64,000 bases of DNA from Syntrophorhabdaceae bacterium (GTDB lineage: Bacteria > Desulfobacterota > Syntrophorhabdia > Syntrophorhabdales > Syntrophorhabdaceae): NCBI GenBank assembly GCA_963666485.2, contig CAXXUO010000001.1:448001-512000 (forward strand), read 5' to 3'. Position 1 is the stretch's first letter. Each line of letters starts with the position of its first letter. Of this stretch, positions 21,001-24,000 are shown one piece after another. The position numbers were made by a program.

Positions 21001-24000
21001 TCACGAAAGCGCCCGTCCAGCGGCTCGCTGACAGGGTGGCGGGCGTGTTTGTCCCCATAGTCATCGGGATCGGCATCTGCGCCTTTATCGTATGGTTTTT
21101 CTTTGGACCCGAACCAAAGGTCACGAATGCCGTCCTTTCCTTTGTAAGCGTCCTTATCATAGCGTGCCCCTGTGCTCTCGGCCTCGCCACGCCAACGGCC
21201 ATCATGGTCGCAACCGGAGTGGGTGCGAGGCGGGGGATCCTCATTAAGAGCGCCGAGGCCCTCGAGCTGACCAACAGGACCCGCCATGTCCTTTTTGACA
21301 AGACCGGGACCCTTACCGAAGGAACGATCGTCCTGGCGGATATCATCCCCTTCGACCATTGTACGGATGAAGAGGTCCTCCGGATAGCGTACAACCTCGA
21401 GCGGCCTTCCGAGCACCCCTTTTCCGAAGCACTGAGAAAAAAGACGCAGGAGATGAACATCCCGTCGGCCGGCGTCGACAACTTTGAGGCGATTGCGGGA
21501 AAAGGGATCAGGGCAACGGTAGACGGGACAGTTTACCGGATGGGGAACAGGACCTTCTACGAAGATGAAGGAGGCGCCCTCGACGAAAAAGTACTGCACG
21601 TTTATGAAGAAAAAGAGAACTCGGCCGCTTCGCCGGTTATCCTGTGGGACGACTCGGGCATAATAGCCCTTCTGACCTTCAGCGATACCGTGCGCGAAGA
21701 ATCGGCCGGCGTTGTGACCGAACTCAAGAAAATGGGCATCGACCCGGTGATGATAACAGGCGACAGCCAGAACGGGGCGCGATCGATAAGCTCGCGGGTC
21801 GGGATCGACACGTATTTCTCCCGGGTCCTTCCGGACGGGAAGGCATCGATCGTGGAGGATTTCAAAAAGAGGGGCGTCACCATCATGGTCGGGGACGGCA
21901 TCAATGACGCGCCGTCGCTTGCGGCCGCCGACATCGGCGTCGCCATGGGCAAGGGCACGGACATAGCCATAGAATCGGCGGACGTGGTCCTGATGAAAGG
22001 TCAGCTGTCGCGGCTCGTCAGCCTCATAAAGCTCTCAAAAAAGACGATCAGGATCATACGGCAAAACCTGTTCTGGGCGTTTATCTATAACGTTCTCGGA
22101 ATACCCATCGCGTTCGGCGCACTGTATCCTTTCTTCGGTATAAGGCTCGAGCCGATATTCGGCGCGGCCGCTATGGTCGTGAGCTCCATCTCCGTGGTGA
22201 GCAATTCATTAAGGCTCAGGCTGTTCAAAGACTGACCCGCCGGTTATTTCTGCTGCTCGTCGAAATATTTCCCGTTTACCTCCCATCCGATGACAGCAAA
22301 ATCGGCATGTGAGGTTGCAAGCGGATCCGACTTCCAGGAAAAACCGAGTGACGGCACGCTTACCTTTGCTTCCGCCTCGGCCTTTGCCCGGAACCCCTCA
22401 AACCGGAAATGTTTCTGCTTATCCTCGATAACGAGCGCCTCCGGCATCGCTGTCCATACAACCTTCAGGCTCATCACCGCGGGCACATACCGGGCTGTGA
22501 GTTCCGGCCATTTCGGCTGGTCGATGACCGGTGTAACGATCTCAAGGGTCGCCTGTTTCGCGTCGGGCGAGACGGTGAGGCTGCCCTTTGGCACGGGGGC
22601 AACCCAGTACAGCCCCGAAGGCGCGATAGCAGGATGAAAATCGTGGATCTTTTTCCCCCCGGCGACCGCCGGGCCCTCAAAGAGGGTGAGTCATATATGG
22701 GAAAATGTTCCCGCGTGCTCCTGCCGGCCCGCGAAATATTTCCCCTCCATGAAGGAAAAATCGGTGCTGGGGGCCCCGAACGCTATGCGGTTGCCACGAT
22801 CATCAGTTCCCATTCCGGTAAAGGCGTTGCTTCGCGCCACGTGCCCTTTGAAATGGTATATGCTCGACGGTTCCATGCCCGGTCCCGGCGATTGGTTCTG
22901 GCTCCCATTCTTGTCAAGCCAGGGTATCGGGAAAGGATCGCTGCCCCCGTTTGAGGGTTCGCTCCACTCTTCGGCGGTCTGACCAATCCCGTGGTTCGCA
23001 AAAAGAAGGGACGCCCCGGCGATAAGGAGCACGCCCGATCCCATCATTTCGCGCCTCGTCAGACCGTTGATCCCGCCAGGTCTCTTTTTACCGGAATACT
23101 CCATCATGGGCCTCCTTCGATCTTTGGTAACATTATCAAAATACTAATCATTTTCCTGCTGCGGGCAAGCATTCCGCCTCGTCCGGCCTTGCAGGGCTTT
23201 CCTTCCGGTACCCGAGACTGTGTCCCAATAAGCCATTACGTCATTCCGCCGGCTTTTGCGGCGGAATCCAGCGTCTTTATCTTCTTTATCCAACTCCATG
23301 GGGAGAAGCATAGTTGTGGCTGTTATCCTATCTTACTGATATTATGGGAGAACAAAACACCAAAGACACTGGATCCCGGCAAGCCGGGATGACGGGATGT
23401 AGTTTATATCCATAATTTCCGCACTTCCCTGTGGGAATAAAGACTCTGACACCCGTGGTTTGCCTGGAAATCTATGTACGTTGTAGAATATAGAGGATAT
23501 GTTACAATTCTCGGATAGACCTATTATCAAGGAAGGGGGAGTCATGAAGATACCGGAGTATATTACAAAAGTCGAGGTCACAAGATTCTGCAAGGAGCTG
23601 AAGATCAGGGATTGGGCGAAACTGAAAACCGCGAAGGTATTGCCAAAAGAAGCGAAGGCCATCCTTGCCGCGGTGAACGAGTCAAAGATGAACATCGATC
23701 CGGAAGAATTCCTCAAAGGTCTCGAGGTGGAACTCGAGCACGGCGTCAGGTTCAAGGATGCCAATATCACCAATAACCACCCTCTGGTCACCGGCAAGAT
23801 CGTCATCGCCCATCTCAAGGAGTCCCTGGACTATTACAAGCTTCTCGAAGTAGCGGAGCTTGAGGGCGACCTGCATAAGGCCGTGGTAGCAGGGGATATG
23901 AAAAAGATAAAAAAGGAATACAAGAAATTGGCGCTGGCGAAGATAATTCTGGCGAAAACGGTGGCGGCGCAGGTGAAATGAAAGCGGTTCTGCGTTCTGC

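Follow-up and report, generated by a model that had tools for sequence, protein, structure and literature searches.

A gene of 286 codons plus a TAA stop, delimited by read-through translation at positions 22244..23104 on the minus strand of the window (the 64,000-nucleotide stretch of DNA analysed here), carries at codon 138 (22691..22693, minus strand) an in-frame TGA that, judging from the sequence, is almost certainly decoded as selenocysteine (Sec). Comparison across relatives shows a single gene with a conserved UGA, a covarying hairpin downstream of it, Sec machinery in the genome and a barrel fold for the product. The best overall explanation, which we hold to be very probable, is one gene whose codon 138 is decoded as Sec by SelB and the hairpin and whose product is a barrel exported through the twin-arginine translocation (Tat) pathway, with a working site made of Sec and His. 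Sequence searches support the family as new to Pfam, to NCBIfam 20.0 and to Table 1 of PMC13188914.

The ATG at 23104 lies 6 nt after the sequence AAGGAGG (23111..23117, minus strand), a putative Shine-Dalgarno element, and an alternative ATG is found 3 nt upstream, at 23107. Codon 138 is the sole internal stop of the read-through frame and is set in the context F-S-H-I-U-L-T-L-F. Genetic code table 11 splits the gene at this point into two ORFs of 138 and 116 amino acids (g00431 and g00430). The first in-frame start 3′ of the TGA occurs 32 codons further on, so that a two-gene model leaves the invariant residues H154, H157 and W167 untranslated. Third-position periodicity is unbroken over the TGA and coding conservation is in frame on both sides: in 68 distinct sequences, codon positions 1/2/3 have entropies of 0.28/0.28/1.29 over the 30 codons preceding the TGA and of 0.24/0.18/1.16 over the 32 codons that follow it. 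Translation, periodicity and a one-domain structural model (see below) all bear out the proposal of the first-pass annotation that the two ORFs are one 286-codon gene with a TGA at codon 138.

All 80 metagenome loci have TGA as the homologous codon, and so do the two loci (L015 and L016) that were the only ones retrieved from genome contigs with a single-protein query. Proteins encoded by these 82 loci are 53–76% identical to the window protein, and every gene has exactly one internal TGA. Within the class the family is carried by 17 of 96 genomes, all 17 with TGA at the homologous codon; copies in two class genomes (G027 and G092) are broken by frameshifts. Neither TAA nor TAG is found at codon 138 in the 82 loci and the 17 class genomes, and the Cys codons TGT and TGC are likewise absent from this position of the Sec clade in both sets. 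The assertion that every copy examined has TGA is upheld inside the Sec clade (82/82 loci and 17/17 class carriers), and the count of 3 carriers among 19 relatives of the genus was reproduced. TGA is also the true stop codon of 41 of the 82 genes and ends the adjoining ATPase gene, which shows that it is not a general sense codon in the carriers. Sec-clade copies seen in databases either end at the TGA or were translated with a code in which TGA is Trp. The former include 69 N-terminal fragments ending exactly at the TGA, 66 of them with a His two residues before the end; where databases give “W” inside the Sec clade, the codon is probably a TGA translated by table 4, as was shown for one such form. 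A scan covering half of the metagenome collection yielded 437 confirmed relatives, and a library at 50% identity has 382 cluster representatives, mostly fragments ending at the TGA. The family is common among soil and sludge bacteria.

The consensus hairpin of the relatives starts 13 nt after the UGA and has a 7-bp helix and a GGC loop. It is 95% paired in 66 distinct sequences, in which three helix pairs switch in bulk (GC 32/AU 25, AU 33/GC 21 and CG 41/AU 23), the double changes occurring in independent combinations. In a control where the 3′ partners were slid by 1–3 columns, 32–58% of the cells pair. RNAalifold independently recovers the same hairpin core. The covarying hairpin at 13 nt that had been reported is in this way corroborated; the sequence given for it, GGGACC-GGC-GGUCCC, is not that of the window, which has a SECIS-type hairpin of 6 bp, CCCGGC-GGUC-GCCGGG (22658..22673, minus strand; minimum-free-energy fold), which starts 17 nt after the UGA and has GGUC as its loop. 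This hairpin recurs in nine further loci of the window clade (L015–L017, L102–L104, L106–L108), and the sole covariation among the 10 sequences is one double change, an outer pair flipped in L108, and one wobble in L106. It is a shifted variant of the consensus, and the homologous soil-type hairpin covaries. The minimum-free-energy fold of 22630–22700 has a z of −2.14 (5 of 200 shuffles fold equally well) and includes, between the UGA and the main hairpin, a small stem of uncertain role, CCCUC-UUU-GAGGG (22674..22686, minus strand), that is lost in most relatives. An Rfam E-value scan of 22100–23300 found no SECIS family, with two chance-level matches only.

The first ~41 residues (22982..23104, minus strand) have the features of a Tat signal peptide: the arginine pair at residues 17–18 lies in the motif T-R-R-E-M-M and is followed by the hydrophobic stretch GSGVLLIAGASLLFA. 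All 70 relatives whose N-terminus is long enough have a motif RR-x-hydrophobic-hydrophobic, in agreement with the twin-arginine signal annotated before. Among 15 members, 6 match Pfam TAT_signal and 4 match TIGR01409, and the leader of the window protein (P0001) scores below the Tat-signal models of both Pfam and TIGR. A profile search against PDB sequences gave matches in this region only (MelC1 and the NapA signal). Tat export of the product is predicted from these sequence features; a twin-arginine leader implies that the protein is probably folded in the cytoplasm, where it possibly gains a cofactor, before it is exported by this pathway.

An AlphaFold2 (AF2) model built on a 139-row alignment has a pLDDT of 88.5 and a pTM of 0.81, with values below 50 over the leader and of 91–99 per 10-residue block from residue 51 on. 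A conserved N-terminal segment (residues 50–84) precedes an 8-stranded up-and-down β-barrel at residues 85–277 (22274..22852, minus strand), of which strands 1–3 are coded before the UGA and strands 4–8 after it. The model confidently predicts one barrel domain from strands on both sides of the TGA, and the mature protein would be a soluble barrel of this type. The earlier description as a mostly β-strand protein holds and is refined to the 8-stranded barrel, while the low-confidence model on which it relied (pLDDT 60.7) is superseded. VIA-align matches other 8-stranded barrels to residues 85–277 with Z 5.2–9.2 (Z 7–9 for the best-matching ones), and Foldseek against the PDB again gave no match at E ≤ 0.001.

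Conservation and strand register define a candidate active-site stretch (22634..22699, minus strand) composed of H136-I-U138-L-T140 in strand 3 and H154-D-F-H157 in strand 4. Of 68 distinct Sec-clade proteins, all have H84, T140, H154, H157 and W167, and 67 have H136. In a distant branch without Sec, H84, H136, T140, H157 and W167 are lost along with it, and H154 is invariant even there. The strand register suggests that the His and Sec side chains point to the same face of the sheet, which is most likely the one turned to the inside of the barrel, their closeness in space being read from this register. From this shared face of Sec138, H154 and H157 we propose that the working site is Sec138 in its H-x-U motif (strand 3) next to H154 and H157 (strand 4). 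The best guess at the function is a Sec–His site in the barrel, probably metal-binding or redox. It would most likely be a metal centre with selenolate and His ligands, or else a Sec–His site for redox or nucleophilic chemistry with a small thiophilic ligand of the periplasm; the metal version, whose chemistry is deduced from these residues, is plausible and still somewhat below even odds. A further-reaching idea, which we put forward as a speculation more doubtful than the metal site as such, is that these proteins make up a new class of selenium-ligated metalloproteins in the periplasm, in which Sec138, H136, H154 and H157 bind a metal inside a calycin-like barrel; loading would take place in the cytoplasm and be followed by export through Tat, and the chemistry would be one beyond the reach of Cys.

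Equally tentative is the proposal that Sec138 is a metal-free catalyst, peroxidase- or reductase-like, or a carrier of S or Se as selenenyl-sulfide or perselenide, with His136 as general base and with resolution by Cys92 or by an external thiol. The near-invariant H-x-U dyad (67/68) fits such a catalyst, as does Cys92 of strand 1, present in 61 of the 68 Sec-clade proteins, and according to PMC13188914 (section 7) uncharacterised selenoproteins are for the most part likely to have redox roles. However, Cys92 is replaced by Ser or Ala in the other 7, and 3 of the 68 mature proteins, the window's among them, have no Cys at all, so that the family is not a thiol-disulfide enzyme of the UxxC/CxxU kind. 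Tat export and the conserved His cluster also fit a preloaded metal better. Nor is a thiol-redox partner seen among conserved neighbours. The statement that there is no conserved neighbour gene can be extended in that neither a metal-handling nor a thiol-redox partner was found in the loci compared, but it needs amending for a DUF202-DUF302 gene, which is the immediate upstream neighbour in 13 of 61 loci with an ORF on that side. The copper ATPase gene convergent with the window gene was considered as a functional partner and rejected as local synteny: besides its orientation, it is separated from the family gene in L015 and L016 by a potassium-transporter-like gene of 618–631 amino acids (named from its translation), and it was not found as a neighbour in the metagenome loci.

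That the barrel is a passive, calycin-like carrier of lipid, haem or polyisoprenoid, in which Sec contacts the ligand or is an axial ligand with no catalysis, is improbable. VIA-align does match it with haemophores, YceI-type polyisoprenoid binders and AttH-like barrels, and an Atlas feature search with the Ser-form homologue P0063 points to CrtC/lipocalin-like clusters and CrtC/DUF2804 (0.86–0.87; leads only). These structural matches, at Z 5–8, are at the level that VIA-align itself states as background. Homology to CrtC (PF07143) was rejected, as hhalign against nine CrtC proteins of the same class gave a probability of 0.36% and no Pfam match was obtained; the CrtC/DUF2804 leads are dismissed as homology on the hhalign result. 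Moreover, the strict keeping of a costly Sec favours chemistry over binding.

Homologues outside the Sec clade are relevant to the proposed Sec–His site. Full-length proteins just outside it have Ser (P0063), Gly (P0005, the Gly form noted previously and seen again here), Glu (P0064) or W (P0065) at the position of Sec, and the distant “PIPGG” branch has W, Cys, Ser or Leu. The claim that Sec is invariant is accordingly correct inside the Sec clade and does not extend to the wider family. Likewise, the remark that no Cys homologue was seen needs amending for P0121, a protein ~28% identical that is the sole Cys form and belongs to the distant branch. The order of branches is only indicative in this BLOSUM62 neighbour-joining tree, which has no support values. 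The basal Ser, Gly and Glu forms (P0063, P0005, P0064) show that the fold survives with neither Sec nor Cys at the site. No Cys form was seen inside the Sec clade or beside it, an uncommon situation where Sec is catalytic, and both observations count against the best explanation. A chemistry beyond the reach of Cys would explain why lineages keep Sec or drop the site altogether (to Ser, Gly or Glu) and do not switch to Cys. As no Cys form was found in the Sec clade, the family offers a natural test case for why selenium sometimes cannot be replaced.

The genome of the window encodes selA and selB, both above cut-offs and in two copies each, selD, which itself holds a TGA, and a tRNA-Sec with a UCA anticodon (73.7 bits). 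The Sec machinery of other carriers, a check that the first-pass annotation had left open, was looked for in the 17 carriers of the class: selB is intact in 14 and split by a frameshift in 2, and 1 has selA only. Co-occurrence with selB is a test without power here, since 85 of the 96 class genomes have selB anyway. We propose that SelB with Sec-tRNA(Sec) decodes UGA 138 as Sec, guided by the short G+C-rich hairpin with a loop starting by GG; the spacing from the UGA is 13 nt for most relatives and 17 nt for the window clade.

It is very unlikely that the UGA is instead recoded as cysteine with the help of selC*, a tRNA(Cys) that resembles tRNA(Sec) and has the anticodon UCA, and of a second SelB (selB*) that would deliver it. 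The two selB and two selA copies of the genome would suit this scheme, which has a precedent proposed for some deltaproteobacteria: the selC*-selB* loci of Syntrophobacterales and Desulfobacterales described by Mukai et al. 2017 (PMC5389517), who also report that a tRNA of this type suppresses opal in E. coli. However, ARAGORN detected no tRNA around either copy of selB or selA (~1.5 kb of flank each), and the sole UCA-anticodon tRNA found is the normal tRNA-Sec, the next two Rfam matches, the only others checked, being tRNA-Ser. In addition, selB is present as one copy in most carriers of the family, and if Cys were adequate at the site, TGT or TGC would be expected in the Sec clade, where the 82 loci and 17 genomes have none. 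The last alternative, a true stop reflecting two genes, a pseudogene or near-cognate read-through (by Trp, Cys or Arg) aided by the hairpin, is no less improbable: gene callers do split the gene, the copies in G027 and G092 are frameshifted and hairpins 3′ of stop codons can boost read-through in general, but the codon is always TGA and never another stop, periodicity runs across it, invariant residues lie in the 32 start-free codons that follow, the barrel is built from both halves, the downstream half lacks a separate signal peptide and Sec machinery is encoded.

The absence of a Pfam or NCBIfam family for the protein, already stated in the first-pass annotation, was seen again: P0001 matches 0 families at E ≤ 1 in Pfam and NCBIfam 20.0, and 15 members match only the Tat-signal models and, in four single-member cases, other models at chance level (E 0.037 to 0.24). 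Deng et al. 2026 (Cell Rep) are said to list unvalidated novel selenoprotein candidates. The catalogue of May 2026 has 119 bacterial selenoprotein families or subfamilies, nearly all represented by a model in Pfam, NCBIfam, TIGR or cd; its Table 1 (PMC13188914), taken as a whole, does not list the present family. This family would add a widespread member to the prokaryotic selenoproteome, with a barrel fold untypical of selenoproteins, most of which are thioredoxin-like (PMC13188914). For soil Acidobacteriota and sludge Syntrophorhabdia, a family model would mend hundreds of annotations.

The top VIA-align matches of the barrel are outer-membrane proteins (NspA, OmpW, OmpX and the OprF N-domain; Z 7.8–9.2 over ~130–140 residues). 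Outer-membrane barrels have a C-terminal aromatic β-signal and a Sec-type signal peptide. The window protein, in contrast, has a Tat leader with its RR pair, conserved residues 50–84 before the barrel and a C-terminal helix (...KYFDEQQK) ending in Lys; an outer-membrane barrel of the OmpX/OmpW/NspA type was rejected and the likeness taken as topological only. The up-and-down 8-stranded topology may also be shared with the calycin-like barrels AttH (2ich), kievitone hydratase/CrtC, haemophilin, YceI and the Diels-Alderases CghA and Fsa2 (Z 5.2–8.5; the values of 7.3 for AttH and 5.2 for kievitone hydratase are within the background range), but these have no sequence or profile homology to the family, are not selenoproteins and lack the H-x-U...H-D-F-H residues. 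The periplasmic formate dehydrogenase FdhA (TIGR01553) is a Tat-exported molybdopterin enzyme of ~1000 residues with a UHxP motif, whose Sec ligates Mo or W. It resembles the window protein in combining a twin-arginine leader with Sec, and Sec as a metal ligand is the role proposed here; the window protein differs in its size of 245 residues, its barrel fold and its H-x-U motif, and has neither detectable homology nor a known cofactor. Compared with catalogued selenoproteins (PMC13188914), the family is set apart by its lack of a family model, its 8-stranded barrel, the absence of UxxC/CxxU and the lack of a Cys form in the Sec clade. In its predicted decoding it is like SelB/bSECIS-decoded genes: an in-frame UGA, a hairpin shortly downstream with G opening the loop, a need for selA/B/C/D and erroneous annotation as two separate ORFs.

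The predicted selenoprotein gene occupies positions 22244-23104 of the window on the minus strand as one frame of 286 codons, in agreement with the first-pass annotation, and its sole internal stop is the TGA of codon 138 (22691-22693, minus strand; U138), in the context F-S-H-I-U-L-T-L-F. Translation with table 11 splits this frame into ORFs of 138 and 116 amino acids. An AAGGAGG site, read from the sequence of the minus strand, precedes the ATG at 23104 by 6 nt, and the next in-frame start past the TGA is found 32 codons downstream. The copper ATPase gene that converges on the selenoprotein gene terminates in TGA, so this codon also serves as a normal stop in the genome (G000). 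The ATPase stop is 8 nt from the TAA of the selenoprotein gene, which leaves no room for separate terminators.

New evidence for read-through was gathered independently of the earlier sequence set. A metagenome scan of half of the collection, with a 10-sequence alignment as query, confirmed at least 437 relatives among 601 matching stretches; the best 80 of these 437 (L017-L096) were analyzed together with two loci (L015 and L016) from a genome scan with a single-protein query. All 82 loci have TGA at the codon that aligns with U138. No gene contains a second internal TGA, and in 41 of the 82 the terminal stop is TGA as well. The mean column entropies at codon positions 1, 2 and 3 (68 distinct sequences) are 0.28, 0.28 and 1.29 in the 30 codons before the TGA and a similar 0.24, 0.18 and 1.16 in the 32 codons right after it; the stretch untranslated under a two-gene model thus has the same coding constraint. 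It holds H154, H157 and W167, all invariant in the homologues with TGA at the site (the Sec clade). In a representative library of 1.84 billion proteins 382 clusters, mostly fragments, match at E ≤ 0.001. Of 209 retrieved database proteins, 69 are N-terminal fragments whose last residue directly precedes the site, and 66 of these have a penultimate His (H-I in 41, H-T in 20, H-L in four and H-V in one). The gene is present in 17 of 96 genomes of the class, with TGA in all 17 carriers, and the earlier genus count was reproduced (3 of 19 genomes, each with the TGA). Two class carriers have it broken by frameshifts and split over two or three frames (G027, C18:196073-196905; G092, C9:195549-196395), as frameshifted copies or assembly errors.

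For the RNA downstream of the UGA, 70 non-identical contexts were taken, each spanning 80 nt about the TGA; alignment of the 54 nt that begin with the TGA gave 66 distinct rows. In these rows a helix (columns 17-23/27-33) shows 95% pairing. Pair 17-33 is GC in 32 and AU in 25, pair 21-29 is AU in 33 and GC in 21, pair 23-27 is CG in 41 and AU in 23, and pair 22-28 shows one CG-to-UA switch. Neither the observed pairing nor the covariation score was reached by any of 500 shuffles, a control with slid 3′ partners gave 32-58% pairing, and RNAalifold independently recovered the same hairpin core. The three pair switches combine differently among loci (e.g., L036, L040, L057, L059) and so are not one inherited event. 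In several switches a silent third-position change in one codon accompanies an amino-acid replacement in a second codon, the coupling that an RNA constraint would predict. The common form has a GGC loop and a stem that begins 13 nt after the UGA. The covariation and the 13-nt spacing of the first-pass annotation hold for most relatives, but the window gene itself has a shifted variant. Together with its clade (L015-L017, L102-L104, L106-L108) it carries a 3-nt insertion, with the peptide A-V-A-G-G, and its hairpin (CCCGGC-GGUC-GCCGGG) is shifted by 4 nt and begins 17 nt after the UGA. Within this clade the outer pair is flipped from C-G to G-C in L108, and L106 has a U-G wobble, which is modest support for the variant. 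No matching SECIS family was identified in Rfam.

G000 encodes two copies of selB (402 and 338 bits) and two of selA (618 and 565 bits), all over the cut-off, and a tRNA-Sec with a UCA anticodon (73.7 bits). The selA and selB copies lie outside the window (contig positions C3:20129-24445, C4:168611-170485 and C1:229833-231191); one selA-selB pair is adjoining on C3, its SelB within a longer frame of 680 aa. The selD gene, also outside (C2:512556-513467), contains a single in-frame TGA, from which its product is predicted to be the selenoprotein form of SelD. selB exceeds the cut-off in 14 of the 17 carriers of the class; it lies in two adjacent frames in carriers G050 and G085, while selA only was found in G017 (94% complete). 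As selB occurs in 85 of the 96 class genomes, its presence in carriers is a necessary condition and not a discriminating test. A selC*/selB* system, as outlined in PMC5389517, was considered as a rival. No tRNA was found in the ~1.5 kb flanks around any G000 selA or selB copy, so these copies do not form an evident selC*-selB* locus such as Mukai et al. described. SelB-dependent Sec insertion at the UGA, well supported by comparison, is very probably the mechanism.

Neither Pfam nor NCBIfam has a family for the window protein and 14 relatives, as annotated before, apart from models of the Tat signal and four chance-level matches, each by a single member. In all 70 relatives with enough N-terminus, two hydrophobic residues follow RR. 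The AlphaFold2 input was a 139-row alignment of 15 read-through translations and 124 database proteins, the latter mostly fragments and largely 50%-identity cluster representatives. The model (mean pLDDT 88.5, pTM 0.81) has 10-residue blocks of pLDDT 91-99 from residue 51 on, 66 in block 41-50, and a disordered leader. The beta-rich fold formerly modeled at pLDDT 60.7 is borne out by this deeper alignment as an eight-stranded meander of the mature protein (residues 85-101, 106-125, 128-143, 151-157 and following, 184-195, 207-228, 233-250 and 266-277), with three strands encoded before the UGA and five after. Foldseek with the modeled barrel found nothing in the PDB at E ≤ 0.001. The best VIA-align matches are 8-stranded up-and-down barrels with Z values within the tool's stated background range: NspA 9.2, OmpW 8.1, CghA and Fsa2 8.3-8.5, AttH 7.3, haemophores and YceI 5-7. 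An Atlas feature search with the natural homologue P0063 led to CrtC/DUF2804 clusters (0.86-0.87); CrtC homology was rejected by profile-profile comparison with nine same-class CrtC proteins (probability 0.36%). Given background-level structural scores and no profile homology, the fold is described only as a soluble calycin-like 8-stranded barrel. An outer-membrane barrel was rejected on the Tat leader and the helical, Lys-ending C-terminus.

All 68 distinct Sec-clade proteins share H84, T140, H154, H157 and W167, and 67 of them have H136. The selenocysteine, annotated earlier as invariant, is not so in the wider family: Ser, Gly, Glu, Trp, Cys or Leu occupies the site outside the Sec clade. 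A single base change turns TGA into a codon for Gly, Ser, Leu, Trp or Cys. A neighbour-joining tree without support values divides the full-length database homologues spanning the site into three groups. JGI entries with W at the site (P0002-P0010 and others) nest inside the Sec clade. An 80-residue stretch of P0009 across the site is identical to the translations of L071, L072 and L075, all with TGA at this codon, and the W of P0009 is therefore a table-4 gene call; we infer the same for the other JGI W entries. Table 4 was apparently picked by gene callers on short contigs, turning TGA into Trp, and the resulting full-length proteins mask selenocysteine. In the lineages that branch off next to the Sec clade, P0063 (H-I-S), P0005 (H-L-G), P0064 (G-L-E) and P0065 (H-F-W), W167 is lost and the histidines are mostly kept. 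The distant non-Sec "PIPGG" branch has F-V-W, S-V-C (P0121), Y-F-S or F-I-L at the site; it is without H84, H136 and H157, and retains H154, E275 and N277. As claimed previously, no Cys form was seen in or beside the Sec clade (82 loci, 17 class carriers, database homologues), but P0121 of the distant branch has Cys. These comparisons suggest that the H-x-U...H-D-F-H signature belongs together and that a lineage retains Sec or else abandons the site.

From the register of strand 128-143 against 151-157, H136, U138 and H154 would share one face with F134 and F142, which is probably the barrel lumen. The Sec-His site is predicted within the barrel of a Tat-exported periplasmic protein. We tentatively propose that it may be a metal centre, loaded before export. 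A metal-free redox or chalcogen-transfer site is a somewhat less likely reading, and passive ligand binding is improbable. C92 is present in 61 of the 68 Sec-clade proteins (Ser in six, Ala in one), three of the 68, the window's included, have no Cys in the mature part, and judged by its residues the family is not a UxxC/CxxU enzyme.

The convergent gene encodes a copper-translocating P1B-type ATPase (20049-22235, plus strand; TIGR01511, 602 bits versus a cut-off of 397). The upstream flank holds genes for a DUF5661 protein (23499-23981, plus strand) and a TPR lipoprotein (24092-24781, minus strand). Only the close relatives L015 and L016 keep synteny with these three; in both, a gene of 618-631 aa, potassium-transporter-like by a reading of its translation, is inserted before the ATPase. 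Two adjoining genes (195 and 879 aa; 25161-28410, minus strand) have no NCBIfam match and are both conserved in L015. ORFs of metagenome loci were called by a crude method of our own. The first-pass annotation saw no conserved neighbour, but 13 of the 61 loci with an upstream ORF have a DUF202-DUF302 gene on the same strand, ending 15-61 nt ahead of the selenoprotein gene; in one soil lineage the two may form an operon. DUF202 (YidH-like membrane) and DUF302 are fused in L025, L030, L032, L034, L035, L042, L043, L053, L060, L062, L078, L081 and L089. A further 10 and 6 metagenome loci have neighbouring genes for alpha/beta hydrolases with a Tat signal. One class (L097-L108) holds the gene in two diverged forms: the window type, marked by the A-V-A-G-G insertion, and the soil type, at ~55% identity. 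This suggests horizontal transfer.

The family was held to be undescribed, and it is absent from Pfam and from the catalogues consulted. In a review of May 2026, 119 families or subfamilies of prokaryotic selenoproteins are listed, nearly all of them with an accession for a model, and no family in its Table 1 fits the window protein (PMC13188914). NCBIfam 20.0, including the selenoprotein models from Haft and co-workers and deep-Sep to which this table refers, gave no match. BSepDB, as presented in PMC13326102, compiles only known families. Full-text literature searching, whose scope excludes Deng et al. 2026 (Cell Rep), said to have unvalidated novel candidates, found no description of the family; priority could be affected by that paper and its supplements. 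The reality of this new selenoprotein family is well supported. Its recoding mechanism is the standard one, while its 8-stranded barrel, a confident model, would be a novel fold for selenoproteins.
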